From contig CASFOK010000002.1 of the NCBI GenBank assembly GCA_949296475.1, positions 10,660 through 74,659 of the forward strand: 64,000 nucleotides of DNA, given 5' to 3'. A program made the position numbers and the translations under genes. Below are positions 4,889-64,000 of the stretch, piece by piece; the first letter of the stretch is position 1, and each line of letters opens with the position of its first letter. Under the pieces are notes generated by a model. That model worked only from the letters and a program-made list of their open reading frames with translations. It ran no database searches and had not been told where the DNA came from. Origin of the DNA: an uncultured Pseudomonadota bacterium (GTDB lineage Bacteria; Pseudomonadota; Alphaproteobacteria; Rs-D84).

Positions 4889-4955
4889 AACAAAACTCCT
4901 TTTGGTCAAATTATATCATAAAAAATCAATACAAAAAAGCATTTAATATTTGAAA

Positions 4956-4986: not shown

Positions 4987-4989
4987 AAT

Positions 4990-7239: not shown

Positions 7240-7276
7240 TGTATCACAAAAAAGGTTTAAATGTTAGGGCTTTAAC

Positions 7277-7981: not shown

Positions 7982-7995
7982 ACCGTCCCCACATT

Positions 7996-9507: not shown

Positions 9508-9551
9508 TTTACTTTTCCCTCCGTCTTTTGTTGTGTAACACAATTTATTTC

Positions 9552-10418: not shown

Positions 10419-10432
10419 AACATTCACCTTAC

Positions 10433-11989: not shown

Positions 11990-12002
11990 ACCCCGCCCCT
12001 TT

Positions 12003-12305
12003 TTATTCAACACTTGCAACTGCGTTTTTGCTAACTTCTATGACAACGCCCTTTGCAATTTCCAAATCTATTGTCTTTTCATTTACTTTTTTAATTTTAC
12101 CGTAAATACCAGCAGCCAAAACGCGATTCCCAACCTGTAATGAGTTCAGCATTTTTTGATATTCTGCCATACGTTTCTTGTTTGGGCGAACCATAAACAA
12201 ATAAATAATTGCAAAAACAACGACACAGTATAACAACAAACCAGTCCAATCACCACCTGAGGCCACTTGATTTGCGTTATCTACAACAACTGCTGTTTCT
12301 TCCAT
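12003..12305 (-). CDS. yajC: Preprotein translocase subunit YajC
   Basis: Single TM followed by VGNRVLAAGIYGKI; sits immediately upstream of secD-secF. Confidence 0.85.
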   Translation of the reverse strand: MEETAVVVDNANQVASGGDWTGLLLYCVVVFAIIYLFMVRPNKKRMAEYQKMLNSLQVGNRVLAAGIYGKIKKVNEKTIDLEIAKGVVIEVSKNAVASVE

Positions 12306-12391
12306 TTAATTCTCCTTATATTTATCAATGTTGTCAGAATAGTAAAAAAAGCCGATTTTGTAAAGGAAATAGTTATAAAACATCATATGTA

Positions 12392-14131
12392 TTAAATACG
12401 TTCAAACCACGCATCTATATCGGTTAGCGGTATAATTTTATAAACGGGTCTGCCGTGGTTACATTCACCGCCCCGCTCTGTTTTTTCTATATCGCGCAAC
12501 AATGCGTCCATCTGGGCAAAATCTAGTTTTTGCCCCGCCCTTACACTGTGATGACAGGCATAATTTGCCACCTTCAGATGCAATCTTTCATTTAACTGAG
12601 CAGAGTGCCCATATTCCCTAACTTCATCTGCAACGCTATGAAATAAATCTGTCCAATCTAAATCCCAATCTGCCGGCTTTTCAAAAATCGCAATCGCATC
12701 ATCACCAAAAGCATCTATATGCAATCCAGCCTTGCGAATATCATCGGATATAGATAAAACAGCAACTACATCCTCGCTCTTCATATTTATCACAATCGGC
12801 GTTAACAAAGGCTGAACTTTAATTGAATGCGAACGTAGCTTTTCGTACGTTATTCTTTCATGGGCGGCATGTTGGTCAACAATCACCAAAGCATCTGGAC
12901 GTTGACTTAAAACATACTTATTTCCAACCTGACCAATTACGCGTCCCAAAGGCAAATCATATGTATCTTGTTCGTGTATTTCTGCTACAATATCTTTATT
13001 AACAGATTCTTGTTTTTCAGACACCGGAAACATAAATGCACTGTCAGGTGCAAGATGTGGCGACGCAACGTACATAGGTTTAGAAACATCAAAAGTCATT
13101 TTTCTAACCTCTGGCCATATTCGTTCCTGATTGTTTGCTTGTATATTTTGTTTTTCACCCATGGGTTTAGACAAAACATCACGCAGATTTTTAATGATAA
13201 AACCACGAATATGTGAAGGCTCTAAAAAATGCACTTCTGTTTTTGCGGGCGACACATTCACGTCAACGTTTCGCGGGTCCATATCAAGATACAAAGCACA
13301 CAGCGGAAATTCACGTGCATGCATCACATCCATATAAGCCGCCCGTAAAGCACCGACCAATACTTTATCTTTTACAGGACGTCCATTTACAAACAAATAC
13401 TGATCAACAGAAGACGCGCGTCTTAGTGTAGGTTCTGAAATAAAACCGTATAATTTTAACGATTTACTGGATGCAGAAGACGCATCTACAGACAACATAC
13501 GTCCGCGCACATCGTCCCCCATAATGCTTGCTATACGTTCTTGTATATCTTGATTTTTTGGAAATCGCCACTTGTTATTCAAAGTAAACCCGACATCCGT
13601 ACGCGCCATAGCCAATTTTTTTACAACGTCCAAGACAGAAATCATCTCTGCCCGGTCACCGCGCAAGAATTTTAATCTGGCCGGTGTTTTAGAAAATAAA
13701 TTTTTAACTCTGACCCTTGTACCAGCCTCCCAATCCGAAGGTTTTATTTCACCGGTATTGCAATTCAAAGACCAACCATTACTGTCCATTCCGTTGCAAG
13801 TATCTATCGCCATATCTGATACAGATGCAATAGACGGTAATGCTTCGCCACGAAAACCCATAAAATTGATATTTAACAAGTCATCGTCTGGTAACTTAGA
13901 CGTTGCATGCCGGGTAATACTTTTTGCTAAATCTTCGCGCGACATTCCCGAACCGTTATCTATCACGGAAATCAGCGTTCTGCCGCCGTCAATAACATCT
14001 ATCATTATCTGGTCTGCGCCCGCATCCAAGGCATTTTCAATTAATTCTTTTACCACACTGGCGGGTCTTTCTACAACCTCTCCTGCGGCAATTTGATTAA
14101 CTAAAAAATCTGGCAGAAGGCGTACAGGCAT
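12392..14131 (-). CDS. mutL: DNA mismatch repair protein MutL
   Basis: N-terminal GHKL ATPase motif QIAAGEVVERPASVVKELIENALDAGA and a C-terminal dimerisation domain. Confidence 0.95.
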   Translation of the reverse strand: MPVRLLPDFLVNQIAAGEVVERPASVVKELIENALDAGADQIMIDVIDGGRTLISVIDNGSGMSREDLAKSITRHATSKLPDDDLLNINFMGFRGEALPSIASVSDMAIDTCNGMDSNGWSLNCNTGEIKPSDWEAGTRVRVKNLFSKTPARLKFLRGDRAEMISVLDVVKKLAMARTDVGFTLNNKWRFPKNQDIQERIASIMGDDVRGRMLSVDASSASSKSLKLYGFISEPTLRRASSVDQYLFVNGRPVKDKVLVGALRAAYMDVMHAREFPLCALYLDMDPRNVDVNVSPAKTEVHFLEPSHIRGFIIKNLRDVLSKPMGEKQNIQANNQERIWPEVRKMTFDVSKPMYVASPHLAPDSAFMFPVSEKQESVNKDIVAEIHEQDTYDLPLGRVIGQVGNKYVLSQRPDALVIVDQHAAHERITYEKLRSHSIKVQPLLTPIVINMKSEDVVAVLSISDDIRKAGLHIDAFGDDAIAIFEKPADWDLDWTDLFHSVADEVREYGHSAQLNERLHLKVANYACHHSVRAGQKLDFAQMDALLRDIEKTERGGECNHGRPVYKIIPLTDIDAWFERI

Positions 14132-14136
14132 TATGA

Positions 14137-14607
14137 CTAGTCCTTAAATTTTACCTCTAAAATTTCATATTCTTTTTCACCGCTTGGTAATTTTACGATA
14201 CAAGTATCACCAACGCAACGACCGATTAAAGCGCGTCCAACCGGTGAATTACAAGAAATAACCTGCTTACCATCAGATTCTATGTCCGACAAAATGCGAC
14301 ATTGCATTCTGTTTCCATCCTCGTCTTCGGCAACAACGCGCGCCCCAAAGACAACGCGATCGCCAGACAAAGAATCAATATCTATGATTGCGGCATTATT
14401 TATAAAATCTTCTATGAACTGTATTCTTTTATCAATTTGACGCTGTTTTTCCTTGGCAGCGCTGTAATCGGCGTTTTCTGACAAATCGCCCAACGAACGC
14501 GCCCATTGCACCGTTTTTAATATCTCTGGACGTTGAACTTCTTTCAAGTCTTTCAGTTCTTTAATCAGACCGTCAAATCCAGCCCGTGAAATTGGTCTTT
14601 TTTCCAT
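14137..14607 (-). CDS. greA: Transcription elongation factor GreA
   Basis: Coiled-coil motif GDLSENADYSAAKEKQ and a C-terminal FKBP-like domain. Confidence 0.95.
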   Translation of the reverse strand: MEKRPISRAGFDGLIKELKDLKEVQRPEILKTVQWARSLGDLSENADYSAAKEKQRQIDKRIQFIEDFINNAAIIDIDSLSGDRVVFGARVVAEDEDGNRMQCRILSDIESDGKQVISCNSPVGRALIGRCVGDTCIVKLPSGEKEYEILEVKFKD

Positions 14608-23708: not shown

Positions 23709-24797
23709 ATGACAACAATATCTATAATTGTACCAATATATAATGTAGAAAAATATATAAAACAATGTCTTGATTCATTGGTAAATCAAACATACAAAGA
23801 TCTAGAAATAATATGCATTGATGATTGTGGTACAGATAATTCTATCAAAATCGCACAAAGTTTTGCAGAAAAAGATTCACGAATAAAAATAATTAAACAT
23901 AAAAAGAATTCCGGTATTTCAACAAGTCGTAACACCGGGATAAAAAATTCGTCGGCGCCGTACTTGATGTTTTGTGATCCAGATGATTGGTATGAACCAG
24001 AAATGTGCGAAAAAATGTTACACGCCATAACAAATAACAAAGTGGACTTGGCTATGTGTGGTATTAATGTAATATATGAAACAAATAAAAACCTAAAAAA
24101 ACACGACAAAACTTTTGCAATAAAAAAAGAAGGCGTTTTCAATATAGACAACAATTTTATATTGACACACAAACCTGGGCTGCCTTTTAAAATATTTAAA
24201 AGAGAACTGATAGAATCATATAATTGTAAATTTCCTGACGGGTTGAAATATGAAGACTTATACTTCTTTAACGTTTATTGCTTATGGGCAAAAAAGATAT
24301 ATTTATTAAAGGATAAATTATATAATTATCGCAGACGCCCGAATTCTATTATGAACAAATCTTTCTCAGGCACTACGAATGCATCTTTGGATATGATAAA
24401 AATCGCCATAAAATATTTTGACTATATAAAAGCAAATAATTTATATAAAAAACAATTTGATTATTTTTGGTCGAATTTATTTATTCGCTGTGTCAGAACA
24501 TCATTGACTTTCGCCGTTAAAAACGAATTCAAAGAAGAAATATTTAATTTGTGCAAACAGTTTATTTCGGAAAACTATGACTTTAATAACAAAAACAAAG
24601 AAACCAACGCTTTAATTAACAGTATTTATCATAAACAATTTATGAAGAAACAAAAGAAACTTGGTGGTTTAATATACGAATACAACGACGGTATAAAACA
24701 CAACTATTTACTATTTAACGTGTTTTCTTTATTAAAACGAAAAATAACAGAAAAAAATCAAAAGAAATATTATATATTTAATATAAGAATATCATAA
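23709..24797 (+). CDS. Family 2 glycosyltransferase
   Basis: ISIIVPIYNVEKYIKQCLDSLVNQTYKDLEIICIDDCGTDNS and the DxD-type motif FCDPDD. Confidence 0.85.
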   Translation: MTTISIIVPIYNVEKYIKQCLDSLVNQTYKDLEIICIDDCGTDNSIKIAQSFAEKDSRIKIIKHKKNSGISTSRNTGIKNSSAPYLMFCDPDDWYEPEMCEKMLHAITNNKVDLAMCGINVIYETNKNLKKHDKTFAIKKEGVFNIDNNFILTHKPGLPFKIFKRELIESYNCKFPDGLKYEDLYFFNVYCLWAKKIYLLKDKLYNYRRRPNSIMNKSFSGTTNASLDMIKIAIKYFDYIKANNLYKKQFDYFWSNLFIRCVRTSLTFAVKNEFKEEIFNLCKQFISENYDFNNKNKETNALINSIYHKQFMKKQKKLGGLIYEYNDGIKHNYLLFNVFSLLKRKITEKNQKKYYIFNIRIS

Positions 24798-25824: not shown

Positions 25825-26847
25825 CTATTTACAACTTTTCATAAATTTGCAAATATTACAACGCAGTTTTTTTGTCCATTTATTAGGTGGATTATCAAAA
25901 ACACCTATTTTTTCTAACTCGCAGAAACGTGTACGAGCCACTTCTAAATCTGCATTATTATCTAAATACTTTATTTTTCGGAACGCCCATTTAATAAAAT
26001 ACCATTTAAACTTTTTAGACCACTGACGCATTTGATAATCGTCTGCTTTGTCTTTATACAATAAATAAGAATATTTTATTCCATCGCATAAACTTTGCAA
26101 AATACGAAGTTGTTTTGCTGACAAAACAATGCCACCAAAATTTGGTATATAGAAGTACAAAGGCAATGCACAAATTGTCACGCGCGGATTTTTCAACATG
26201 ATTGCACTCCACCATGGGAAATCTTCAAACAAAATTCCTTTTATAAATGGGGTATCTGCAATCAAATCACGTTTATATAAATTCTTCCACACTTGGCAAT
26301 GTTTTATTAACCATTTTTTATTTGGATTAAATGCATTATGTGCCCGTTCCGTTGCATATGCAAATACATCATCTGTCACCAAAGTTTTTATCTTTGCGGG
26401 ATTATATTTTTTATGAAGTCTTGCCGGTATCACATTATCTGTATCCAGCCCTAATTTATATCGCACCATTAGTTGCGGTCTATATATTCTGTCATATGTA
26501 AAAGACACAATATCAGAATTATCGCGCGACGCCAAATAATGAGTTATTTCCAACGTCTGTGGATGAATAAAGTCATCGCTATCCAAAAACAAAATATAAT
26601 CACCGGTTGCTATTTGCATACCAGCATTTCTCGCATCTGATAAACCACCGTTTTCCTTATTGACTATTTTAAATCTTTTATCACGCGCAGCATATTCAGA
26701 TAATATAACGCTGCTGTTATCCGGACTGCCGTCATTAACACATATCGCTTCCCAATCTTTGAATGATTGATTTAATACGCTGTCCAAGCATCTACGCAAA
26801 TATTTTTCTACATTGTAAATCGGGATTATAACTGAAACAGTGGTCAT
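25825..26847 (-). CDS. Family 2 glycosyltransferase
   Basis: VSVIIPIYNVEKYLRRCLDSVLNQSFKDWEAICVNDGSPDNS and FLDSDD. Confidence 0.85.
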   Translation of the reverse strand: MTTVSVIIPIYNVEKYLRRCLDSVLNQSFKDWEAICVNDGSPDNSSVILSEYAARDKRFKIVNKENGGLSDARNAGMQIATGDYILFLDSDDFIHPQTLEITHYLASRDNSDIVSFTYDRIYRPQLMVRYKLGLDTDNVIPARLHKKYNPAKIKTLVTDDVFAYATERAHNAFNPNKKWLIKHCQVWKNLYKRDLIADTPFIKGILFEDFPWWSAIMLKNPRVTICALPLYFYIPNFGGIVLSAKQLRILQSLCDGIKYSYLLYKDKADDYQMRQWSKKFKWYFIKWAFRKIKYLDNNADLEVARTRFCELEKIGVFDNPPNKWTKKLRCNICKFMKSCK

Positions 26848-49061: not shown

Positions 49062-49091
49062 AAAAACCGACCTGCTCGGTCGGTTTGTTTT
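49062..49091. terminator. Bidirectional intrinsic terminator after tRNA-Tyr
   Basis: aaaccgacc-tgctc-ggtcggttt, with tgttttt on the plus strand and T-rich sequence on the minus strand. Confidence 0.8.
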
Positions 49092-49178
49092 TGGTGGGAG
49101 TGGGTGGATTCGAACCACCTCAGGCTTAAGCCAACAGATTTACAGTCTGCCCCGGCTCTCCAACTCCGGCGCACGCCC
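49092..49178 (-). tRNA. tRNA-Tyr (GUA), type II with a long variable arm; CCA encoded
   Basis: Hand-folded as GGGCGTG-CG-CCGG-AGTTGGAGAG-CCGG-G-GCAGA-CTGTAAA-TCTGT-TGGCTTAAGCCTGA-GGTGG-TTCGAAT-CCACC-CACTCCC-A-CCA. The fold has a C4/U69 mismatch and C at position 8. Confidence 0.85.
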
Positions 49179-49293: not shown

Positions 49294-49368
49294 TGGTGCG
49301 GGCAGCGGGAATCGAACCCGCATTTCAAGCTTGGAAGGCTTGCATACTAGCCTTTGTACTATGCCCGC
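49294..49368 (-). tRNA. tRNA-Gly (UCC); CCA encoded
   Basis: Hand-folded as GCGGGCA-TA-GTAC-AAAGGCTA-GTAT-G-CAAGC-CTTCCAA-GCTTG-AAAT-GCGGG-TTCGATT-CCCGC-TGCCCGC-A-CCA. All stems pair. Confidence 0.92.
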
Positions 49369-49451: not shown

Positions 49452-50327
49452 TTATCTGATTCCGTGAATGATGTCCTCTAATTCCATCAAAAATTCCATA
49501 TCATAACCACGAGCCTTTAATCTTTGTAACATCAAATGCGCTGCATTGGCAACCCCTAAACTTTTGCAAATTTCAACAACCGTTACAATTTCATCACGAC
49601 TCATTTTATCCGTAGGCATTAACGCAACCGCCACCCCCAGCTCACGAACAGCAGCACGCATATATGCCGTCTTGTTATCGCAACAACCATATTCATATAA
49701 TATAGCATAATTTTTAGCGTTATTTAAAAACTCATCATAACTATATGCATTTATGTCTATATTTCTCATCAATCTGTTTTCAATGGTTTGACATATTTTT
49801 TCTTCTGAATATAAATATTCACTTGGATTTTTAGTTTCGTAATCAAGTGCTAACAATGCTTCTGCTATTACTTTCTTGCGAAGTGCCATATCAGCAAAAA
49901 ATTTAGAGTTTTCCGGACAACCCTTTTCTGCTAAAACTTCATAAATATGCGCCGAATTAAGTTGTTCATAAGGCCCATCCATTTCATCATCAACAACATT
50001 TTTCAACAATATATTTTCTATGACTTTACACGCTGGGACAACAGCAATATCTTTTGACTCGTCATTGTCTTTTGGTTCTGTAATTTCTGCATCAGCATCA
50101 CTATCAACCGTTTGCACAATTTCCGAGTTAATCTGGTCTGTTACGTTTTGTGCTTCTTGTACAATTTCTTGGTTTTCAACTTTATCAGATAAACCAAACA
50201 CACCGCGTTGATACATACCAAAAACAGTCAGCCCCGCAATCAGCAAACAAAAAATAATCCAAAACCATACCCTGCCCTTACGAACAACTTTTGTCTTTGA
50301 ATCAGTAATTTTGTTTTCTTTTACCAT
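49452..50327 (-). CDS. Hypothetical membrane-anchored protein with two Cys-bracketed helical modules (P291)
   Basis: TM segment VWFWIIFCLLIAGLTVFGMY, acidic linker, and modules CKVIENILL...YEVLAEKGC and CQTIENRLM...YAILYEYGC. Confidence 0.65.
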   Translation of the reverse strand: MVKENKITDSKTKVVRKGRVWFWIIFCLLIAGLTVFGMYQRGVFGLSDKVENQEIVQEAQNVTDQINSEIVQTVDSDADAEITEPKDNDESKDIAVVPACKVIENILLKNVVDDEMDGPYEQLNSAHIYEVLAEKGCPENSKFFADMALRKKVIAEALLALDYETKNPSEYLYSEEKICQTIENRLMRNIDINAYSYDEFLNNAKNYAILYEYGCCDNKTAYMRAAVRELGVAVALMPTDKMSRDEIVTVVEICKSLGVANAAHLMLQRLKARGYDMEFLMELEDIIHGIR

Positions 50328-50341
50328 TTTATTTCCTTTAA

Positions 50342-50593
50342 TTATTTAATTGGCGGAAAGCAACTGTCACCATTTTCAGGGCAACAGTTAAAACCTAGGT
50401 CCCCCATATCTGTAAAAACCTCGCCCGCGCAACAACCATTCTTATCCGGCGCGTTTCCGTCAGGGCAAACAACATCGCTTGTGTTTGTAAGAGAATTTTC
50501 AGCAACGTTTTGCCATAACAACGTTGCCCCCCAACCTATTACTATTCCCAACAACAAAAACAGTAAATACTTTTGCGAAACTGTTATTTTCAT
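50342..50593 (-). CDS. Hypothetical small membrane-anchored protein with a C-terminal 6-Cys domain (P83)
   Basis: TM segment YLLFLLLGIVIGWGATLLW, then CPDGNAPDKNGCCAGEVFTDMGDLGFNCCPENGDSCFPPIK. Confidence 0.6.
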   Translation of the reverse strand: MKITVSQKYLLFLLLGIVIGWGATLLWQNVAENSLTNTSDVVCPDGNAPDKNGCCAGEVFTDMGDLGFNCCPENGDSCFPPIK

Positions 50594-51270
50594 AATGCAT
50601 CACCCGTAGTTATCGGCGGATAACAATCACCGCCATCATCTGGACAACAAGCAAAAATTAAGTTACCCAAATCCTTGAACGTTTCACCCTGACAGCAACC
50701 AAAGCGATTAGGTTTACTTCCATCGGCGCAGAGACCCGCTTCTATATTTGCGGCGACCTGCTCTTCATCTACCTCGTCTATATCTTCGGAAACATCGGTT
50801 TCATTAACAGCACAATCTGCGTCATATTGATCCTGCAACATTGCTTTTTCTTCTGTGCTGCCGGTGGCTACCTCCATAGATTTTTGTAAATCTTTACAAT
50901 TTTGATTTTTCTTAGATAAATATTCATTTAACACTTCTGTTGCGGTTTTAACTTCTACGGTCTGAACATCTTCTGCTGGCTGGGCAACAGGAACGGGGGT
51001 AACAGTTGCCCGACCAGATGTCGAAGTTTTACGTCCGGCAATACTTTTAGAACAATCTTTACGATATCTTTCTTGCAAAGATTTTAATTCTGCAGATACA
51101 GAATCGTCAGGATTTTCAACTGCAGACAGTTCTGATATTTTTTGCTGCATAGTCGGGCAATCCATACGTTCTGCAACATTATTTGCAGTTGCAAAAGTCA
51201 TGCTTGCGTCAAACATTTGCAGACACATTAAAATCGCACCTATAAAAAGACAAATTTTCGCTTTATTCAT
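50590..51270 (-). CDS. Hypothetical secreted protein with two Cys-bracketed modules and a C-terminal 6-Cys domain (P226)
   Basis: Signal peptide MNKAKICLFIGAILMCLQMFDASMTFA and C-terminal CADGSKPNRFGCCQGETFKDLGNLIFACCPDDGGDCYPPI. ATGA overlap with P83. Confidence 0.65.
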   Translation of the reverse strand: MNKAKICLFIGAILMCLQMFDASMTFATANNVAERMDCPTMQQKISELSAVENPDDSVSAELKSLQERYRKDCSKSIAGRKTSTSGRATVTPVPVAQPAEDVQTVEVKTATEVLNEYLSKKNQNCKDLQKSMEVATGSTEEKAMLQDQYDADCAVNETDVSEDIDEVDEEQVAANIEAGLCADGSKPNRFGCCQGETFKDLGNLIFACCPDDGGDCYPPITTGDAL

Positions 51271-51946
51271 ATTTAACTTCTATCAGTTCAGAAGTTATAT
51301 CTAAATAATAAGGGTTTTCTTTTATCTTTTTTCTAAATACCTCGGCTTCTTCCGGCATATCTATTCTGTCATACAGATTCATAAATCTATTCAAATCTAA
51401 CTGTGATCTGCCGTCACCTATTGCATCCGCAATAGACATCTCTCTCACCGTCATAGACCTATACATTTCGGCGTTTTCTGCGCATCCCTTTTCATACAAA
51501 GTGGCATACGTATCCGCATTGTTCATATGTACAAAATAATCCATAGAATCTTCTGGTCTTAATCTTGTTTTCAACAATTGTTCTATACGAACGCAAGTTG
51601 ATAATATGTCATTTTGTTCAGAATTATTTTGTGCGACAGCGTCACGTTCAAATATGACAACGCGTCCCTGACATCCTTTTTCATACGCTTTATTTAAATC
51701 GCGCAATGTATCAATATTATCATCGTTAACGCCTGCAACGGTCAGGTTAAAAATTTCTTGTGCAACAGCTTCGCATTCTTGGGCGCCCATCATCATTTTT
51801 TTATCCGAAGTCTTAAAACCAAGTCCTACGAATAAACCACAGGCAAACAATCCTGCCAAAGCAATAACAGACAATATTTTATGCCTGTTGCTGCATTTAC
51901 AAACCGTATTTTCGTTACTTACAGCGTTTTTTGATAAAGATTTCAT
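51263..51946 (-). CDS. Hypothetical membrane-anchored protein with two Cys-bracketed helical modules (P227)
   Basis: TM segment ILSVIALAGLFACGLFVGLGF. Modules CEAVAQEIFNL...AYEKGC and CVRIEQLLK...YATLYEKGC. Paralogue of P204. Confidence 0.65.
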   Translation of the reverse strand: MKSLSKNAVSNENTVCKCSNRHKILSVIALAGLFACGLFVGLGFKTSDKKMMMGAQECEAVAQEIFNLTVAGVNDDNIDTLRDLNKAYEKGCQGRVVIFERDAVAQNNSEQNDILSTCVRIEQLLKTRLRPEDSMDYFVHMNNADTYATLYEKGCAENAEMYRSMTVREMSIADAIGDGRSQLDLNRFMNLYDRIDMPEEAEVFRKKIKENPYYLDITSELIEVKYE

Positions 51947-51967
51947 TTATCCCCCCTTGTTATATTC

Positions 51968-52582
51968 TTATTTTTCCAAAATATCGGAACTTTGTAAAGT
52001 GTTTAAAAATTGTTGCGTATCTTTATGCATATCGGATTCTATAAAAACCTTTAACACATATTGCACTTTTTGTTCATCATAACCTGGTTGTAATAATTTT
52101 GCGTTCATTTGTTCTTGCTGTGCAAGACCTACATAATATTCTGATTTCTCAGGACATCCTGCATACGCCAACTTATTATAAATCATTGAATTGTATACGT
52201 GTGCTACAAAATTAGGGCTGTCTTCTGGGAACAGTTTTTGCAACAAAATATCTTCTGTAATCTCGCAAGAATTTTTTTGTTTTTTTATATCATCATTATT
52301 AATAATGATTAACCTGCCGGCACAACCGTTTGAATAAGATTCATTTAATTGACGTAATTTATCCACATTATCTTGTGTTGCACCTGCTGTGGTAATATCA
52401 ATAATTTCTTGTGCAACAGCATCACATTCTTGAGGCGTTAATTTTTTAGAATTAAAAAAATCGCTGTTGTACATCAGTCCTAAAAATCCGCCTAAGCAAA
52501 ATAATAAAATCAAGGCCACAACGCAAAAGAATTTTTTCCAAAATCCCGTTTTTTTCTGTTCTTTTACTACAATTTGTTTCAT
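51968..52582 (-). CDS. Hypothetical membrane-anchored protein with two Cys-bracketed helical modules (P204)
   Basis: TM segment FWKKFFCVVALILLFCLGGFLGL. Modules CDAVAQEIIDI...SYSNGC and CEITEDILLQ...NKLAYAGC. Confidence 0.65.
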   Translation of the reverse strand: MKQIVVKEQKKTGFWKKFFCVVALILLFCLGGFLGLMYNSDFFNSKKLTPQECDAVAQEIIDITTAGATQDNVDKLRQLNESYSNGCAGRLIIINNDDIKKQKNSCEITEDILLQKLFPEDSPNFVAHVYNSMIYNKLAYAGCPEKSEYYVGLAQQEQMNAKLLQPGYDEQKVQYVLKVFIESDMHKDTQQFLNTLQSSDILEK

Positions 52583-52610
52583 TTTATTTTCCTACATTAT
52601 TTATTAAGGT

Positions 52611-53321
52611 TTATTTTATTATACCATTTTTTATAGTGATTTGTCTATCGGCACGTGCAGCCAAATTCATATCATGCGTTACAAACAACATTGCCATTTT
52701 GTTTTTACGAACTAAATCCATTAACAAATCAAATACAGTCAAAGCGTGTGCAGGATCCAAACTGCCTGTCGGTTCATCCGCCAGCAATATTTCGGGATTA
52801 TTCGCCAAAGCGCGCGCGACAGCGGTTCTTTGTTGTTCCCCCCCAGACATCTGCCCAGGCAAATGCGACGCCCTGTGAACAACGCTGGCCGCCTGCAGTA
52901 ATTTCATTGCGCGACTGTTTGCTGTATTTTCATCAACGCCGTTTGCCAACATTGGTAAAACGACGTTTTCAAGTGCTGTAAAATCTGATAATAAATTATG
53001 CCTTTGATAAACAAATCCTATTTTTCTTCTGCGCATTAAAGTGCGCATTTCATCATCCATTTTTTGTACGGGCGTTCCATCCAGCAATATGCTTCCCGAT
53101 GTGGGTTTATCCAACAATCCGACGCATTGTAACAGCGTTGATTTTCCACTGCCCGAAGGACCGACCAACGCAATGATTTCACCACGATGTAAATCAAAAC
53201 CGCCACCACGTAAAATATGCAACGGTTGCCCGCCTTCTATGAAGGTCTTTTTAATATCCCGCACAGACAAAACAATGTCAGCCTTGGATACTTTTGATAA
53301 AGAATTTAATATATTCGCCAT
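52611..53321 (-). CDS. lolD: Lipoprotein-releasing ABC transporter ATP-binding protein LolD
   Basis: Walker A GPSGSGKST, signature LSGGEQQR and Walker B LLADEPTG. Adjacent to the LolC/E permease gene. Confidence 0.88.
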   Translation of the reverse strand: MANILNSLSKVSKADIVLSVRDIKKTFIEGGQPLHILRGGGFDLHRGEIIALVGPSGSGKSTLLQCVGLLDKPTSGSILLDGTPVQKMDDEMRTLMRRRKIGFVYQRHNLLSDFTALENVVLPMLANGVDENTANSRAMKLLQAASVVHRASHLPGQMSGGEQQRTAVARALANNPEILLADEPTGSLDPAHALTVFDLLMDLVRKNKMAMLFVTHDMNLAARADRQITIKNGIIK

Positions 53322-53333
53322 TATTTTGTCCCT

Positions 53334-54587
53334 TTACTCGTTTCTTAAAACTTCCACAGGATCTGTGCTGGCCGCTTTCCACGCCGGATAAAGAGTAGCC
53401 AAAAACGCCAACACAATAGCTATAAACGCTATGCCGATAACAGTGCTTGGTACCAGTTTAGAAGGTAATTCCGATAAATAGTATAACTCTGCCGGGAACA
53501 AATCGCGACCGGTGGCCCATTGAAAGAACTGACGAATTGGCTCTATATATATAGCAATCAAAACGCCAAACAACGTTCCAAAAAACGCGCCTATTATACC
53601 GATACTGGTACCTGATAAAATGAATATTTTCATCATAGAACGTCGTGAAACGCCAAAAGTACGTAACACTGCAATATCTTTTGATTTATCTTTAACCAAC
53701 ATAACCAGGCTTGATACGATATTAAAAGCAGCCACAATAACTATCAGCATTAAAATCAAAAACATAACATTTGATTCAACCTGCAAAGCCCCGACAAAAC
53801 CGCGATTTAAATCCCGCCAATCGCGTACGACGAAACCGTCTGGCAGTAATCTTATCAAAGCATCACGCACTTCTTCTGTTTCTTCTGGGTCTTTTAAAAA
53901 TAAATCAATATGTGTAACTGCATTATCAATATTTAAATATTTTTGGGCTGTTTCTAGGGGCATAAATATATATCCCGAATCATATTCGTACATTCCCATA
54001 AAGAACGAAGACATTACTGGATACGCCATAATTCTTGGCATAGAACCAAAAGGTGTGGGCGTTGCACCATTTGCAGATACCAAAGATATATTATCACCCA
54101 TACCAACACGCAAAGCGCGCGTTAACGAAGCACCCGCGACTAATTCACCGTCTGTTATCTTATCCAACGGTTTTCCATAGATTTTCGTACCTGTCGCGGT
54201 TTTCGCCGCCAAATCAGACATTCTTATGCCGCGTATCATCGCCCCCGTATTATTACCATTTGCGGTTGCCATGACCTGCCCTTCGGCAATCGGAACAATA
54301 GACGTTGCGCTATCGGCAACGACTTTGTTTTGTTTCATTTTCTCTATCAAGAAATCGTAATCTGTGATTGCACCGTCTTGATAATAAACAACAACATGAC
54401 CATTCATGCCGACGATACGTGACAACAAAGTATCGTGAAATCCGCCCATTACTGACATGACGACAATCAGAGTTGCCACGCCCAAAGTTATACCTATCAA
54501 AGATACCCACGAAATAACAGAACCAAACCCACGTTTTTTTGCAGATAAATATCTAAAAGCTATTTTTCTTTCTAGTTTTGAAAACAT
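53334..54587 (-). CDS. Lipoprotein-releasing system permease, LolC/LolE family
   Basis: RYLSAKKRGFGSVISWVSLIGITLGVATLIVVMSVMGGF, a MacB-like periplasmic domain and a C-terminal FtsX domain. Confidence 0.88.
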   Translation of the reverse strand: MFSKLERKIAFRYLSAKKRGFGSVISWVSLIGITLGVATLIVVMSVMGGFHDTLLSRIVGMNGHVVVYYQDGAITDYDFLIEKMKQNKVVADSATSIVPIAEGQVMATANGNNTGAMIRGIRMSDLAAKTATGTKIYGKPLDKITDGELVAGASLTRALRVGMGDNISLVSANGATPTPFGSMPRIMAYPVMSSFFMGMYEYDSGYIFMPLETAQKYLNIDNAVTHIDLFLKDPEETEEVRDALIRLLPDGFVVRDWRDLNRGFVGALQVESNVMFLILMLIVIVAAFNIVSSLVMLVKDKSKDIAVLRTFGVSRRSMMKIFILSGTSIGIIGAFFGTLFGVLIAIYIEPIRQFFQWATGRDLFPAELYYLSELPSKLVPSTVIGIAFIAIVLAFLATLYPAWKAASTDPVEVLRNE

Positions 54588-54621
54588 ATATTATTCCTAT
54601 TTATATTTTTCTTAATACATT

Positions 54622-55950
54622 TTATTCACTCAAAAAATCGCGCAACGCATCACCAGCAAGCGGCATTTGTGAATTGCCTGACTTTTCTGCATCAACTATT
54701 GATATTATTCGCGGGGACATAAACACAACTAATTCCGCGAATGGGCTTATCAAAGTTTCCGGCGTGGTTACGAACGAGTGTGTTGGAATACCTATTATTA
54801 TATAATTATCGCCGATACTTGACGGGATATTAAACGAAGACAATTCACCGTTGCTTGTACGCAGTACTATCTTGGCATCAATCTTATCACGACCACCAAA
54901 GTCACCGTATTTTGCGGTCGCGCCTATAATCAAGTCAGTTTCCAACCTATCTTCTTTGCTACATTGCCCGATATCAAAACGTGACTGCCAACCATTAGGA
55001 ATGACAAAACGTCCTTGGGATATCAACACAACGTTTGCTTGCTGCGACAAGAATTCTTGCAGGGTCTTGGTATTAATTTCAGGACTTACCACTAGTGCGC
55101 GCCCCACGATTCCAGGAATTGACATTTTTATATTATTATCACCGAACGCCGGCAACAAGTTCATCCATATAATCGGGTTGTCTGTACGGGGATATACGCG
55201 GTATACATCAATATCCCACGCTAACATATATTTCTTTGACGCTATATCGGAAATTATTTTTGCAACTTCACGTTCTGTCTGATAATTCCCCTCAAAGACA
55301 ACTGTTTTATCTTGCCAATCAACCAACAAATTGCGCATATCGGCGCCATGCATAGCATCCAATAAAGCCATAACAATGTTTTCATCTTTTGGCATTTTTA
55401 CCATCCACTTTGCGCGATGGTTTAAGTGAATTTCACCGGCAGCCGCATCATAAGAATAATAAACCCGCCCCATTTTTGCCATCAATTCAACGGCATCAGA
55501 TAAACTGCCTGACGAAATAGAACCCGAAATTTTTTCTATTACTTCCTCATCTTCAACCACAGATATATCTGTACCATCCAACAACCTATCCAAAGCCTGT
55601 TTTACGGTTAACTGTTTAAAATCGTAATCAGAAACGTTTAATTCTGGTAAATCGTCACCTACCCCTAAACGCACGATTTCTATTTTTTCTTCTGGTACGA
55701 CCGATATTACAGTTTGGTTATCCCAATTCACCTCGCACCTTTTGGGTAAATCAATAGAAAATCTTCGCGCGGTATCTGTTGTTAACGCGGCTTTCTTAGG
55801 AAAGATAGGAACAGAATTTTCATCAATGACGAAGTTTTCTACTACATTGATGGTATCATATTGTTGTTGCTGCGTTTGCGCGGTTTGATTGGCGCAACTT
55901 GTTAAAAATCCCAACGCAATCAAAGCAAATAATTTTTTTAATATCATCAT
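54622..55950 (-). CDS. Hypothetical outer-membrane lipoprotein, secretin-like at the C-terminus (tentative)
   Basis: Lipobox ALGFLTSC. Central AWDIDVYRVYP and C-terminal ...NYIIIGIPTHS...AELVVFMSPRII resemble secretin C-domain strands (viGGl ... eLlifitPriv). The usual P.LG.IP.LG.LF motif is absent. Confidence 0.35.
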   Translation of the reverse strand: MMILKKLFALIALGFLTSCANQTAQTQQQQYDTINVVENFVIDENSVPIFPKKAALTTDTARRFSIDLPKRCEVNWDNQTVISVVPEEKIEIVRLGVGDDLPELNVSDYDFKQLTVKQALDRLLDGTDISVVEDEEVIEKISGSISSGSLSDAVELMAKMGRVYYSYDAAAGEIHLNHRAKWMVKMPKDENIVMALLDAMHGADMRNLLVDWQDKTVVFEGNYQTEREVAKIISDIASKKYMLAWDIDVYRVYPRTDNPIIWMNLLPAFGDNNIKMSIPGIVGRALVVSPEINTKTLQEFLSQQANVVLISQGRFVIPNGWQSRFDIGQCSKEDRLETDLIIGATAKYGDFGGRDKIDAKIVLRTSNGELSSFNIPSSIGDNYIIIGIPTHSFVTTPETLISPFAELVVFMSPRIISIVDAEKSGNSQMPLAGDALRDFLSE

Positions 55951-55986
55951 ACTTTCCTTTCTCTTCTTTTCGTTTATATCACGATA

Positions 55987-56313
55987 TCAAATATTCATAA
56001 CCCTTTCAAATTCTTCAAGAGTCATTTCATATATTGGTTTTTGTGTTGGTGTGGTTAAATTTTGAACTTTTTTATATCTTTCTTCAAATTTCTTTATTAC
56101 AGCAACCACTTCTGCGGGCACAGTAATAGACTTATCTGCCATTAATCTTCGTCCGTATTCATAAACGAACTCTAAGGTATCGGCTGCAAAAAAACGTCCT
56201 ACATAATTTTCCATAGCGATACCGCCTTTCTCAACGCAAATAGCAGACATCATCATTGCCATTTGATTATAAAAATTTGCCAACTTAATAAAGTTTTGAA
56301 CTGTTATTGCCAT
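55987..56313 (-). CDS. Hypothetical 108-aa cytoplasmic protein; first gene of the minus-strand block
   Basis: ORF with AGGA 8 nt upstream of the ATG at 56313. No recognisable motif. Confidence 0.5.
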   Translation of the reverse strand: MAITVQNFIKLANFYNQMAMMMSAICVEKGGIAMENYVGRFFAADTLEFVYEYGRRLMADKSITVPAEVVAVIKKFEERYKKVQNLTTPTQKPIYEMTLEEFERVMNI

Positions 56314-56339: not shown

Positions 56340-56369
56340 ATTATAAAAACTATTGCCCCCCAAAGGCAA
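56340..56369 (-). promoter_or_regulatory. Candidate sigma70-type promoter for the 56313-to-49452 block
   Basis: On the minus strand: TTGCCT (56369-56364), 18-nt spacer, TATAAT (56345-56340). Confidence 0.35.
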
Positions 56370-56381
56370 TTAAATTATAAT
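56353..56381 (+). promoter_or_regulatory. Candidate sigma70-type promoter for the 56389 lipoprotein gene; would give a leaderless or near-leaderless mRNA
   Basis: TTGCCC (56353-56358), 17-nt spacer, TATAAT (56376-56381). The ATG lies 7 nt after the -10 box and has no SD. Confidence 0.4.
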
Positions 56382-56388
56382 ACAAAAC

Positions 56389-56769
56389 ATGAGAATAAAA
56401 TATCTAGCAATATTATTAATATTATCTGCATGTGCATCTGCCAACCGGGGCAGTATTGACAACGCGACAATATTAAACTGGGAAAACGAATCCGTAACGA
56501 TGGAACAGTTTGTACGCGATCACAAGGCCTGTCTTGGTATTGATAAGCCTTCGTATATGCCCAAGTCACGTATTGCGAAATTAATAGCACCAAACCAAAG
56601 CGACATAATGCCTGACTGGGATGGTTTGTGGGTAACGTTTCAATCAAATGAATATAAAGACGTAGGTCAACGTTCTTTGTTATCTGTTCCCAGAAACACC
56701 ACATCAAAATCTGTTGGTGCATACCGTAAATGTATGTTTAGACGCGGTTATTTACTGCGTGCCAGTTAA
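56389..56769 (+). CDS. Hypothetical lipoprotein
   Basis: MRIKYLAILLILSAC lipobox; 126 aa. Confidence 0.6.
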   Translation: MRIKYLAILLILSACASANRGSIDNATILNWENESVTMEQFVRDHKACLGIDKPSYMPKSRIAKLIAPNQSDIMPDWDGLWVTFQSNEYKDVGQRSLLSVPRNTTSKSVGAYRKCMFRRGYLLRAS

Positions 56770-57513: not shown

Positions 57514-59289
57514 ATGAACTTATTTGATTCGTCTTTTTTATGTCTTGATATAGGTACCAGCGGTGTACGCGGGATTGCACATCGCGTTCGCTCTGGACGA
57601 ATAGACCGTTCTGCGGTATACGCCGTAGACAGTTTTGATACAACTTTTGCTCTAAAATCTACAATTGACGAACTAGAACGTCAAATAGGTTCACATTTTG
57701 ACTCTGCATATATAACTGGTAATTTCGGTCCTGCTTTGTTTGAAATGGTGGCAAAAAGCACTACATGGAACAACGAACATAAAATAAACACATCGGATAT
57801 AAAAAACCAAATTTCACAGATTACAGCGCCAGAAAACTTTTATCCTATGCATATAATACCTTTGCGATACGATACGCCCAGCGCAAGAAACATGTTTTCA
57901 CCAATTGGTCACACAGACAGACAATTAATTTCTGCGTTTGGTGCCGTTTTTTACAGCAAACCTGAATTAGATAAAATGTTTTCCACACTACGTCGGGCGC
58001 ATATTCAATCAGACGCATTATATGACCCACAATATTTACTAAATGCAAGTTTTCGTAAATTAAAACAAAACACTTTATTTATAGATTTTGGTGCACAATT
58101 CACAAGCGCATCCATTTGGACAGACCGTGGCCCTGTATGGTATGAAAAATTAGAACACGGCGGAACAAATATAAGTTTAGATATTTCAGAACAATTAAAC
58201 ATAGATTTTGACGAAGCCGAACGCATAAAACGCAATGTATCCAGTTTGATTCCCAAAGAAATGGACCGCTTTACGCCGGCAGATACAGCTTATGAGTTTT
58301 CTCGCGCAGACGTAAACGATATTGTTTTACCACATATCGTAGATATAATTGCGGAAATAAAAGAAAAATGCACAAATGCGTTTTCAAAATATCGTCCTGT
58401 GCAGATAATAATAACTGGTGGCGGTGCAAATATTGAATCTATGCCCGAATTTATAGAAAACGCGTTTAATTTACCAATAAAAAACCTGCATTCTGATGCA
58501 ACTGTTCGTGCATTATCTTCTTATATTTGGGACGGCGAATCAGAACATCGTCAATCATACATGGCCAGAAAACAAAGATGGGGCAACATAACAAAAAAAT
58601 TAAATATGTTGTTTAAAAGGCGTCACAAAAAACAACAGTTTTTTGTACCAATTTTACCAAGCACGCTTTGCTTTAATATGAAAAGCCCTGTAACATATTC
58701 CATGTTTAAATCCAGTGGCATATCAATGATTCACGTGGACATCATGGACGGTTTTTACGTTGATAGAATCGCCGGCAGTATAAACGAATTAAAATACATA
58801 CGTTCCCACACAGACGCGCATTTGCATGTACATCTTATGACAGAAAGCCCATCTGTTTGGGCCCAAGACGCAATCAGCGCAGGTGCAGACACAATAATAG
58901 TTTCAACTAACACTTCCGGTTTACGAGACGCGTTACGATTAATAAAATCTGCATCACGTCGCGCCGGTGTTGCTCTTAATCCAGATTCGTCTGTTGAAAT
59001 TTTAAAACCGATTTTGCGTGAAATTGACGAGATTATGATAATGACAGTAAAACCGGGGGCCGCCGGACAATCCTTTAACGAGTCTTGTTTAAAGAAAATT
59101 TCCGTTCTTTCGGCAACCAGAAAAAAATATGGCTTAAAATATACAATTTCGGTTGACGGCGGCATAAATCCAGAAACCGCAAAAAAGTGCTGGGATGCCG
59201 GCGCCGATTTATTGGTCTGCGGTTCATACTTAGCAAAAAGTCGCGATTTTCCCGTCGCCGTTCAAAAATTATTAAAACAACCAAGATAA
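57514..59289 (+). CDS. ftsA-rpe: FtsA-like cell division protein fused in frame to ribulose-phosphate 3-epimerase
   Basis: Residues 1 to about 365 show the actin-like FtsA motifs LCLDIGTSGVRG, FIDFGAQFTSASIW and IIITGGGANIESMPEF. Residues about 380-591 are Rpe-like: ILPSTL, HVDIMDG, HVHLM, MTVKPGAAGQ, SVDGG and CGSYL. No stop codon lies between them. Confidence 0.8.
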   Translation: MNLFDSSFLCLDIGTSGVRGIAHRVRSGRIDRSAVYAVDSFDTTFALKSTIDELERQIGSHFDSAYITGNFGPALFEMVAKSTTWNNEHKINTSDIKNQISQITAPENFYPMHIIPLRYDTPSARNMFSPIGHTDRQLISAFGAVFYSKPELDKMFSTLRRAHIQSDALYDPQYLLNASFRKLKQNTLFIDFGAQFTSASIWTDRGPVWYEKLEHGGTNISLDISEQLNIDFDEAERIKRNVSSLIPKEMDRFTPADTAYEFSRADVNDIVLPHIVDIIAEIKEKCTNAFSKYRPVQIIITGGGANIESMPEFIENAFNLPIKNLHSDATVRALSSYIWDGESEHRQSYMARKQRWGNITKKLNMLFKRRHKKQQFFVPILPSTLCFNMKSPVTYSMFKSSGISMIHVDIMDGFYVDRIAGSINELKYIRSHTDAHLHVHLMTESPSVWAQDAISAGADTIIVSTNTSGLRDALRLIKSASRRAGVALNPDSSVEILKPILREIDEIMIMTVKPGAAGQSFNESCLKKISVLSATRKKYGLKYTISVDGGINPETAKKCWDAGADLLVCGSYLAKSRDFPVAVQKLLKQPR

Positions 59290-61875: not shown

Positions 61876-61921
61876 AAATGATAATATAATTCATTATAAT
61901 CAAAATACAAGGATAGAGAGA

Positions 61922-64000
61922 ATGGCACTTAAACCCAGATATAAACGTAGAATTTTTTGGTCTGTTGCAGGATTACTAGGTCTTGCTTTGGCTGCTTTAA
62001 TTATCGTTCCACCGATGATAACTCTTAACAATCTAAAACCAAAGATAGAACAGACAATCTACGAACAAACGGGTGTACCGGCAAAAATCAACGGTAACGT
62101 AAATTTCAGTCTTCTGGGACGCGCCACAATTGTTGCACATGATGTAGATATACCGATTGGTAATATAGGGGCGCTGTTATTTACGATACCGCTAACAAGC
62201 ATATTTGATTTAAATAATGCGCCACTAACGGGTGACATTTCTGTATACAGGGCAAACGTAACCATTAATAAACTGATACCAAAAACATTCTCGCATCCTA
62301 TTGAGATATATAATTCTTATGTAAAGTATAAAACTAAATACTTTGAAATCCAAAATGCCACACTTGACAATGGAAATCTTGTTGGGATTGTTCGTACAGA
62401 AAAGCATAAATATGACATAGAATTTGATAAAGACTTATTTTTCATCAGAAATCAAAACGACAAATTAGAAATATCTGGTCAATTATACTCTGATGGTTCT
62501 GTACGCGGACAAATATCTATGGAAACCAACGACATTAATAAGTGGTTTGATTTTTCTGAACCCAAAATAGACACAACCATCAGTTTAACAACAAAATTTG
62601 AGTGGGACGGCGGCAAAGGATATTCTTTTAAAGATATTTCCGCAAATAACTTCAAAGGCAATATAGAAATTTTACCAAACGGTGAAAAAAATATTCAGTT
62701 ATCTGGACAAAACATAATTTATGATATGTCTTTTTTATTAAAACCATCGCGAATATTTTACAGAACGAATTTCAATCTTGATTTTTATGGTGATTTACAA
62801 TTCGGTAATTATACGTTCAAGCATTTAAAAATTGATGCGATTGGTACAACGAATTATCTACAAATTGCAAATATAGTAGCAGATGATATTGCGATGACCG
62901 GCGGCATAATAGACGCAAACGGCGCAAAAGATATAATGATAACCACACCATACGAAGGTCAACCAGCAATGTGCCTATTTTCAGGCACGCCAGAACGTTG
63001 GAAATGCAGCGAATATACATACGGTGATTATTGGGGCAGTTTGTCTGTAAACGATAATAATTTTGAGATATTCATTCAGTCCGACAAACCGATGCCCGAT
63101 AGAAATACTTTGATTAAATGGGCAAAAAAACTTGGTGATACCGGCCGAATAAATTTTCAGTTTTCAGATATTGGCGGCAGTTTTGATATAACCCCAGATA
63201 ATTACATGACGCCAAAATATACTTTCGCGGAAAATAAAACTTTGAATTGGCTAAACCCCAACATAAAAAACATACCAAAATTTATGCGCGATGAACCTGG
63301 TGACTTTAAATGGTCAGATAATACGATGATATTTGTTCCTAATTCAGGACAGTGGACATTGATATTATCTGAAAATTCTTTTAGCATAATGGGGAAAAGC
63401 GCAAAACAATGGTTCCCGGACCTAGACCTGCGCGCATTAAACGACCAAGAATATGTGGTATCAGGTACATACAAAGATGATATAATATCAAACCTGACAA
63501 TAGAAATTGCCGGTCAAGAATTTACAGGCAGCGTTAACGGAAACAACATAACGCTTTATACGAAGTTATTAAACATAGACTCGTTCATGAATCAAGAATT
63601 TCTTGATAATTATGAAGAAAACTCTTTTTTAACCACATCACCTATTATGTTACCATTTAACCTTCCTGTTAATATATCTTTATCTGCCGACAGTTTAATT
63701 TATAACGGGGACGAGTTTAAAAATTTTGTATATGCATTAAAATCTGGCACACAAACATTTTCTATTACAGATAATTCGCGTGGTAATTTGTTAGCGACTA
63801 TAAATAAAACAAACAATCAATATAAGATATTTGCTCAATTAAATAAATTTATAATAAATGGTTACTTGTTATCATCTGAAATGCCTCTGAATATTCGCGA
63901 CACGATGATAACCGCAGAAATAAATATGACAACATCTGGGAACATCGCGCATGATATAGCATATAACATTGCTGGCGATATGGATTTAACTTTTACCGGT
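61922..64000 (+). CDS. AsmA-family envelope protein, 3'-truncated by the window edge; not in the ORF track
   Basis: I translated this frame by hand from the ATG at 61922 (AAGGATAGAGAG upstream) and found no stop to 64000 (more than 690 codons). The N-terminus (MALKPRYKRRIFWSVAGLLGLALAALIIVPPMITLNNLKPKIEQTIYEQTGVPAKINGNVNFSLLGRATIVAHDV) is typical of AsmA-like proteins. Confidence 0.6.
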   Translation, partial: MALKPRYKRRIFWSVAGLLGLALAALIIVPPMITLNNLKPKIEQTIYEQTGVPAKINGNVNFSLLGRATIVAHDVDIPIGNIGALLFTIPLTSIFDLNNAPLTGDISVYRANVTINKLIPKTFSHPIEIYNSYVKYKTKYFEIQNATLDNGNLVGIVRTEKHKYDIEFDKDLFFIRNQNDKLEISGQLYSDGSVRGQISMETNDINKWFDFSEPKIDTTISLTTKFEWDGGKGYSFKDISANNFKGNIEILPNGEKNIQLSGQNIIYDMSFLLKPSRIFYRTNFNLDFYGDLQFGNYTFKHLKIDAIGTTNYLQIANIVADDIAMTGGIIDANGAKDIMITTPYEGQPAMCLFSGTPERWKCSEYTYGDYWGSLSVNDNNFEIFIQSDKPMPDRNTLIKWAKKLGDTGRINFQFSDIGGSFDITPDNYMTPKYTFAENKTLNWLNPNIKNIPKFMRDEPGDFKWSDNTMIFVPNSGQWTLILSENSFSIMGKSAKQWFPDLDLRALNDQEYVVSGTYKDDIISNLTIEIAGQEFTGSVNGNNITLYTKLLNIDSFMNQEFLDNYEENSFLTTSPIMLPFNLPVNISLSADSLIYNGDEFKNFVYALKSGTQTFSITDNSRGNLLATINKTNNQYKIFAQLNKFIINGYLLSSEMPLNIRDTMITAEINMTTSGNIAHDIAYNIAGDMDLTFTG

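Follow-up and report, generated by a model that had tools for sequence, protein, structure and literature searches.

A divergent secretin-like lipoprotein gene beside lolF and lolD in a putative envelope gene cluster of an Enterousia-like gut alphaproteobacterium

The 64-kb stretch of DNA analysed here (the window; assembly GCA_949296475.1, contig CASFOK010000002.1) comes from a Candidatus Enterousia-like alphaproteobacterium of the order Rs-D84 with a genome of ~1 Mb. Genomes of Enterousia measure 0.75-1.0 Mb and are ~90% coding, and members of Rs-D84 and Enterousia are widespread gut bacteria without respiratory chains and several glycolytic enzymes, for which a partner-dependent lifestyle has been suggested (PMC12306168). 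Positions 49452-56313 of the window (the block) hold nine open reading frames (ORFs) on the minus strand, among them genes for a lipoprotein of the secretin superfamily (LP442), a lipoprotein-releasing ABC transporter (LolF and LolD) and five cysteine-rich proteins. In our judgement the block has about an even chance of being a composite and probably polycistronic cluster of envelope genes in this reduced-genome gut bacterium. From 5′ to 3′ its genes are:

55987-56313, minus strand: P108, a small protein of 108 amino acids (aa) with neither an export signal nor a hydrophobic segment.
54622-55950, minus strand: LP442, a compact lipoprotein of the secretin superfamily (lipobox LTSC; assigned by hhalign and by its AlphaFold2 (AF2) fold).
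53334-54587, minus strand: LolF-type lipoprotein-releasing ABC permease, a single LolC/E homologue (TIGR02212; MacB_PCD and FtsX domains).
52611-53321, minus strand: probable LolD ATPase (best family TIGR02211; PDB matches).
51968-52582, minus strand: P204, an extra paralogue in the helical Cys-pair family, exported and anchored at its N-terminus.
51263-51946, minus strand: P227, of the helical Cys-pair family, with C-x~36-GC modules.
50590-51270, minus strand: P226, with a signal peptide, 12 cysteines and a C-terminal six-Cys motif (C-x10-CC-x14-CC-x6-C-x-PP).
50342-50593, minus strand: P83, a membrane-anchored mini-paralogue with the six-Cys C-terminal motif only.
49452-50327, minus strand: P291, a two-module member of the helical Cys-pair family; present in a subset of the genus.

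An earlier, sequence-only reading of the window had proposed that these nine co-directional genes form one operon, and the ORF listing reproduced both the genes and the gaps between them exactly (36, 34, 12, 28, 21, -8, -4 and 14 nt from 5′ to 3′). The genes share a strand, their junctions are short or overlapping, and no intrinsic terminator interrupts them: under stricter criteria the whole window shows eight strong intergenic terminators, each of which separates transcription units, and none within 49452-56313, where the terminator candidates are weak and confined to coding sequence. The contrast between a terminator-free block and conspicuous terminators elsewhere was thus correctly drawn, and the first strong terminator does lie beyond the two downstream tRNA genes. 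The features that flank or punctuate the block are:

56389-56769, plus strand: P126, a divergent predicted lipoprotein (lipobox LSAC) encoded immediately ahead of ftsQ, which has the same orientation.
56340-56369, minus strand: sigma-70-type promoter of P108 (TTGCCT-18-TATAAT, 10/12 match).
56352-56370, no strand assigned: inverted repeat ATTGCC...GGCAAT made of two facing -35 boxes, with an 8-pair hairpin, conserved in the genus.
52618-52647, minus strand: candidate internal promoter (TAGACA-18-TATAAT with the TG of an extended -10), at 11/12 the best match of the region.
49294-49368, minus strand: tRNA-Gly(UCC), with a weak promoter-like site of its own at 49422-49393.
49092-49178, minus strand: tRNA-Tyr(GUA), downstream of the block on its strand.
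49064-49086, no strand assigned: bidirectional intrinsic terminator (strong hairpin and T-run), the first strong one 3′ of the block.

LP442 (442 aa) has a signal-peptide segment, ALIALGFLTSC, that fits the PS51257-type lipobox pattern, followed by Ala at position +2. The lipobox cysteine (Cys19) is invariant across the LP442 family, as are Cys72 and Cys330, which may form a disulfide joining the N-terminal region to the barrel. An exhaustive HMMER search gathered the family into 131 clusters at 50% identity, which have no Pfam assignment; every source name seen was 'hypothetical protein'. PF00263 matched neither LP442 nor its close family members, the STN match of LP442 is sub-threshold (19.7 bits against a cut-off of 28.4), and sequence-profile searches of LP442 against PDB detected no secretin. 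The weak tail matches of the HMMER search are genuine secretins with PF00263, STN and sometimes TcpQ, and when the LP442 family was aligned by hhalign to PF00263-positive secretins, the match reached 99.95% probability and E 4e-38 over 335 columns, spanning the barrel through the C-terminal ELV..PR motif.

The predicted structure agrees with this alignment. A shallow alignment of sequences 80-98% identical yielded an unusable AF2 model (predicted local distance difference test, pLDDT, 36), and a deeper alignment yielded one with pLDDT 79.8. The top 26 PDB fold matches of the latter are all secretins (probability 0.96-1.0), the best being BfpB (9u5s_A, E 3.6e-10); the N0-N1 domains of MxiD, EscC and XcpQ are matched with probability up to 1.0 and E 3e-4 to 1e-2, and compact phage secretins also match. 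The template modelling (TM) scores lie at 0.15-0.28; such low values are to be expected where an extended monomer is set against protomers of assembled rings. LP442 is accordingly best annotated, from its profile and its model, as a predicted divergent, compact liposecretin, and the label 'secretin-like lipoprotein' given to it from the sequence alone was apt. Anchored by its lipid, it would be expected to form an oligomeric outer-membrane pore. Recognizing LP442 as a secretin improves the annotation of these genomes. Two other identities were considered and rejected: LP442 is not a LolB analogue, for neither LolA nor LolB occurs among the 50 listed fold matches, which include all those with E ≤0.001; and a prophage or inovirus origin of the region is contradicted by the lack of PHROG matches and phage genes around LP442, although the fold also resembles pIV.

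No assembly ATPase or platform of a type II secretion system (T2SS), type III secretion system (T3SS), type IV pilus (T4P) or filamentous phage was found among the scanned genes of the window, nor were T2SS, T4P or type IV secretion system (T4SS) partner genes found anywhere in the 64 kb. When VirB10 and VirB11 of a distant relative (locus L097) were used as tblastn queries, the ±10 kb flanks of 80 loci of the genus gave no match, and L097 alone did. Type IV pilus genes were reported in one study of these bacteria for another lineage only (PMC12306168). On the evidence of the window and the locus flanks LP442 may be an orphan secretin.

The permease gene downstream of LP442 scores above the equivalog cut-off of TIGR02212 (416.2 bits against 362.45), and its best PDB match is LolF (9w37, E 2e-66, residues 1-417), followed by LolC and LolE, with MacB far weaker. 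What the sequence-only reading labelled 'lolE-family' is a single LolF-type permease. The lolD label appears to be right: TIGR02211 is the best family of the ATPase, and its top eight PDB matches are all E. coli LolD (E ~1e-61). Alphaproteobacteria use LolF with LolD and have no recognizable LolB (PMC9963962), and by homology the pair of the window is this LolF-LolD system, presumably the housekeeping lipoprotein extractor. No LolA turned up among the scanned genes of the 64-kb window. The transporter shows 81-100% identity across the genus, a level typical of an essential gene.

Close homologues of LP442 number >1,000 in metagenomes. A scan of species-representative genomes yielded 80 loci with 75-97% identity, from Candidatus Enterousia or uncultured Alphaproteobacteria/Rickettsiales of animal and human guts, one of them on a 958-kb chromosome from a metagenome-assembled genome (MAG) labelled circular. 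All genes were compared with these 80 loci by tblastn and ORF chaining (L-numbers designate the loci of relatives). Of the 78 genus loci that cover these genes completely, all 78 have P126 on the opposite strand followed by P108, LP442, lolF and lolD in this order, with tight or overlapping junctions; the divergent upstream position of P126 was seen in 79 loci, and in many species the stop codon of the LP442 homologue overlaps the start of lolF. All nine genes of the block occur together in the closest relatives only, and what lies beyond its 3′ end differs within the genus. Median identities to the window are 74% for P108, 80% for LP442, 88% for LolF, 85% for LolD and 59% for FtsQ, so that LP442 is constrained like a core gene. 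Sixteen of the 78 species have an extra gene of ~245 aa without a Pfam match (e.g. L021 11526-12275) between lolF and lolD, with stop and start codons that touch or overlap those of the genes on either side.

In six intermediate lineages beyond the genus, the secretin homologue shares 36-41% identity with LP442. In four of the six, the core of a P108-like gene, the secretin gene, lolF and lolD is present, with LolF 41-47% identical and both flanks reshuffled; further downstream these four differ completely (DUF488, a glycosyltransferase, EF-P and IF2). What follows the secretin gene in each lineage is:

L082: lolF-lolD, junction -8 nt.
L083: lolF-lolD, junction +8 nt.
L084: lolF-lolD, junction -4 nt.
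L103: lolF-lolD, junction +4 nt.
L102: two small ORFs without assignment, no lol genes.
L104: one 475-aa ORF without assignment, no lol genes.

In a rough neighbour-joining tree the Lol-adjacent secretin homologues all group together, and L102 and L104 branch from within this clade, a pattern that suggests a single fusion and two later losses. Conservation of the lol neighbourhood in relatives, which the sequence-only reading had put forward as a check, holds for the core from P108 to lolD, in the genus and in four lineages; the cysteine-rich genes keep that place in the genus only.

The 75-nt region between P126 and P108 (56314-56388) is nearly invariant across 79 species of the genus, with the consensus ATTATAATTTAaTTGCcTTnnnGGGGCAATAGTTTTTATAAT (at least 80% conservation over the 79 species). 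The -35/-10 candidate that had been pointed out at 56340-56369 was recovered in the promoter scan within this footprint, and a mirrored promoter (TTGCCC-17-TATAAT) serves the divergent P126; the inverted repeat formed by the two -35 boxes is a possible operator. When ~80 species were scanned for sigma-70 sites matching at least 10 of 12 positions within 100 nt upstream of each gene, such a site preceded P108 in 62% of loci, against a background of 2% in coding sequence; it preceded LP442 in 12%, lolF or lolD in 0%, and the first cysteine-rich gene in 19%. Because promoters are enriched before P108 and none precedes lolF or lolD, the first four genes look like one unit. The candidate internal promoter (52647-52618) overlaps the lolD stop codon, 36 nt ahead of P204, and may give the cysteine-rich genes supplementary expression. 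Layout, the conserved P108 promoter and synteny in the genus together bear out the operon-like character that had been attributed to the block.

P108 has no match in Pfam, NCBIfam or PHROGs, and a PDB sequence search with it returned nothing meaningful. It resembles the C-terminal domain of a protein, here called B, that always precedes the secretin-like gene in other lineages; the resemblance is weak (E 1e-5 to 1e-7) and positionally consistent. Wherever the upstream flank is present, the secretin gene is preceded by genes for a ~330-aa double-HTH_3 regulator, a protein A and protein B; A and B/P108 have no Pfam match. P108 and LP442 thus appear, by similarity and position, to be the last two genes of a wider lineage-specific module of helix-turn-helix (HTH) regulator, A, B and secretin. 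In ~10 more distant loci (secretin identity 23-32%) the secretin gene is followed by a gene designated 'MEN', and no lol gene lies within ~6 kb. The MEN proteins (L085-L097, e.g. L097 7277-7939) are bitopic, ~170-220 aa long, start with the residues MEN and have one transmembrane segment and a C-terminal domain with an RCG...QGC motif; they have no Pfam match and are absent from the window. In L097 (227-3222) the module lies directly after virB10 (TrbI) and virB11, and in L091 (3-1814) it adjoins a large membrane protein with a weak TrbL/VirB6 match; these neighbours in distant relatives hint at a link between the module and type IV secretion.

The five cysteine-rich proteins belong to two families, P204, P227 and P291 with helical C-x~36-GC modules and P226 and P83 with the six-Cys C-terminal motif, and all five carry a single hydrophobic segment near the N-terminus. 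Conservation of the C...GC pairs and of the six-Cys motif is at least 85%; median identities of the five proteins to the window are 34-52%. In nearly every species of the genus lolD is followed first by a P227-type and next by a P226-type gene, and in many species these two show the same -8 overlap; P83 and P291 occur in a subclade, and the copy number varies from two to five. Full-length counterparts of P204 were found only in the closest relatives (L001 and L002), and P204-like ORFs of 144-159 aa in three others. None of the five matches Pfam, NCBIfam or PHROGs, and PDB sequence searches (P226 and the P227 family) returned nothing meaningful. A profile search with the P227 family found 285 clusters, the few named ones being 'hypothetical protein', mostly from MAGs labelled Alphaproteobacteria; both contexts examined show the same position after lolD. 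Profile hidden Markov models of four Cys families matched nothing in the non-genus loci L082–L099 nor elsewhere in the window, and in no other lineage examined do cysteine-rich genes stand beside secretin or lol genes. The cysteine-rich genes thus appear to be a genus-specific, rapidly evolving cassette, and the rate of change and export signals of their products fit surface or periplasmic interaction proteins. Neither DsbA/DsbB nor VKOR turned up among the scanned genes of the window.

P227-type proteins were also considered as lipoproteins and Lol cargo, and this was rejected: a permitted residue at position -1 is present in only 35 of 66 orthologues, one orthologue has no cysteine, and the hydrophobic stretch runs past the site. 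An LFxCG motif is conserved in these proteins, for which a membrane anchor is more likely than lipidation to judge from their N-termini. The helical Cys-pair proteins (49452-52582) share a C-terminal motif, D..F[LI]...E.II, despite fast divergence elsewhere; in most P227-type orthologues it reads DPAIDFILxxEKIINE, possibly a sorting or interaction signal.

If the block is a polycistronic envelope gene cluster, the conserved promoter upstream of P108 would drive P108, LP442, lolF and lolD as one unit, and transcription would probably run on into the genus-specific cysteine-rich genes, because no terminator intervenes and the gaps are tiny or overlapping; a second promoter before P204 may add to their expression. 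LP442, as a lipoprotein without Asp at +2, would need LolFD, which would extract it from the inner membrane for transfer to the outer membrane; this is the only mechanistic link in the block that known biology implies. P204, P227, P226, P83 and P291 would be membrane-anchored or secreted and face the periplasm or the surface; no mechanistic tie connects their genes with Lol or the secretin. Support is best for the view that LP442 may be a Lol substrate co-expressed with Lol, as other lipidated secretins, HxcQ among them, probably act as their own pilots by using Lol through their lipid anchor (PMC3230066). The link between the secretin pair and lolFD appears to be old and mostly retained, and since it was kept while the surroundings were reshuffled, it favours some selective benefit, of which the simplest would be co-expression of a lipidated secretin with the machine that takes it to the outer membrane.

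Several observations weigh against this reading. The adjacency of secretin and lolFD is missing in L102, in L104 and in the ~10 more distant loci, so the link seems to be dispensable in some lineages. To our knowledge all outer-membrane lipoproteins depend on Lol, and the dependence of LP442 is hence not specific. The extra gene found within the lolF-lolD pair of 16 of the 78 species shows that the pair itself can be split, and the match of LolD to TIGR02211 (248 bits) is below the cut-off of 307.75. The window is ~93% coding, its same-strand gaps have a median of 14 nt, and 70% of them are ≤40 nt; another run of 11 minus-strand genes (1827-14607) likewise has no strong terminator, and those identified in it encode a FabD-like acyltransferase, FtsK, a PAP2 phosphatase, an S41 peptidase, SecF, SecD, YajC, MutL and GreA. 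In this genome it is usual for unrelated genes to form co-directional runs without terminators, so layout alone is no proof of coupling; an operon-like layout by itself is weak evidence of function in streamlined genomes. These features are what would be expected if genome compaction had removed promoters and terminators between unrelated units, leaving co-transcription without functional relationship, and the confinement of the cysteine-rich genes to the genus and the absence of the arrangement from distant clades fit such neutral adjacency as well. We regard it as possible but doubtful, given that the P108-like–secretin–lolF–lolD core survives at identities of 36-41% (secretin) and 41-47% (LolF) with fully reshuffled flanks, and that its junctions overlap or nearly overlap in several lineages. 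The claim of the sequence-only reading that the adjacency is not due to chance thus gains from the four lineages with a preserved core and loses from the unrelated housekeeping run with the same features.

At the other extreme, the block might encode an integrated export or surface-display machine, in which LolFD, or Sec and Lol together, hands lipoproteins or cysteine-rich cargo to the LP442 pore. The missing T2SS, T4P and T4SS partners (window for all three; ±10 kb flanks in the genus for VirB10/VirB11 only), the report of type IV pilus genes solely for another lineage (PMC12306168), the housekeeping-level constraint on LP442 and the position of five cysteine-rich proteins with export or anchor signals after lolD would suit a dedicated device, and one published account (PMC12802150) offers a precedent in secretin-dependent surface lipoproteins. 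Such a machine is nonetheless unlikely: no homologue of the Cys families lies near the secretin gene in other lineages (L082–L099), many lineages have the secretin module without lol, only 35 of 66 P227-type proteins have a permissible lipobox, so that proteins of this type are probably not lipidated, and no platform or adaptor between ABC transporter and secretin was seen at the locus. We know of no inner-membrane platform or adaptor that couples an ABC transporter to a secretin. The proposal of a coupled envelope, secretion or surface-display module in the sequence-only reading is thus supported in part: the block is operon-like and its secretin–lolFD core is conserved, but its cysteine-rich genes are restricted to the genus, its secretin belongs primarily to a separate module, and mechanistic integration into one machine is speculative. 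It is very improbable that the ABC transporter is a dedicated MacB-like exporter powering secretion through LP442 instead of Lol; the MacB_PCD and FtsX architecture and the sub-cut-off LolD score would allow it, but the permease passes the TIGR02212 equivalog cut-off, the closest proteins of solved structure, matched full-length, are LolF, LolC, LolE and LolD, with MacB far behind, no membrane-fusion adaptor gene is present, and the 81-100% identity in the genus is like that of essential genes.

A composite envelope cluster with a conserved secretin–lolFD core remains our preferred reading. LP442, as tightly conserved as LolF and LolD, probably co-transcribed with the Lol genes and without a pilus or secretion partner nearby, is a candidate for cell-surface or contact machinery, and the fast-evolving cysteine-rich proteins are candidate surface or interaction factors. 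A further speculation, which we consider distinctly unlikely, is that the orphan, housekeeping-grade liposecretin, without a T2SS, T4P or T3SS partner, forms with LolFD a minimal surface route for lipoproteins or cysteine-rich proteins that is usable for cell contact; if it were true, a partner-dependent, metabolically crippled bacterium could in this way contact other cells.

Other observations concern the rest of the window and the relatives. In a 591-aa ORF (57514-59289, plus strand) the N-terminal part is FtsA-like (PF14450) and is joined to a complete ribulose-phosphate 3-epimerase (PF00834); the same fusion was called in L100 and L101. In the Enterousia-like genome of L100, a Slam-like protein (TPR_Slam and SlipAM; 12948-14279), a candidate exporter of surface lipoproteins, is encoded ~6 kb downstream of the block. 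P311 (47356-48291, minus strand) is a predicted lipoprotein with lipobox LTAC and 8 cysteines, and a similar sequence was found in 2 of 80 loci. The proteins encoded at 23709-24797 (plus strand) and 25825-26847 (minus strand) have paralogous N-termini (41% identity over 124 aa) and resemble the glycosyltransferase encoded after lolD in L083. The last ~2 kb of the window (61876-64000; GC content 0.34) contain no listed ORF >90 aa and no Rfam match, and may represent a decayed gene or a gene running off the window end.

No published report was found of a secretin–lol operon, or of lolFD behind a secretin gene and before cysteine-rich genes. The closest known systems are the lipidated secretins from type IVb pili and related systems (BfpB, TcpC, R64 PilN and P. 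aeruginosa HxcQ), which share with LP442 a lipobox at the N-terminus and a secretin barrel at the C-terminus; an STN/N0-like N-domain is a candidate further resemblance. In fold LP442 is closest to BfpB, which is a type IVb pilus secretin and a lipoprotein. Lipidated secretins are probably delivered by Lol via their own lipid anchor, and the same is expected for LP442 (PMC3230066). In contrast to them, LP442 is shorter (442 aa) and lacks a match to PF00263 and any sequence match to solved secretins, and its neighbours are not pilus or type II genes but the regulator with two HTH_3 domains, A, B/P108 and, in some lineages, lolFD. The LolDF and LolCDE systems are likewise encoded by adjacent genes, and the pair of the window has their usual order and full-length homology to solved LolF and LolD; it differs in being part of a larger unit, with a secretin gene before it and cysteine-rich genes after it, and in being split in some species. 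Compact viral secretins such as pIV of the filamentous phage f1 are similar to LP442 in size (~410-430 aa) and fold, whereas LP442 is predicted to be lipidated and is encoded by a chromosomal core gene with 75-97% identity across the genus. The T4SS core (VirB7/VirB9/VirB10) and DotD-type N0 lipoproteins come into consideration because the module of one distant relative adjoins virB10–virB11, but the homology of LP442 reaches beyond the N0 domain and through the secretin barrel, and the window has no vir genes. Among these systems, the locus may be described as a divergent liposecretin module that was probably fused transcriptionally to lolFD.

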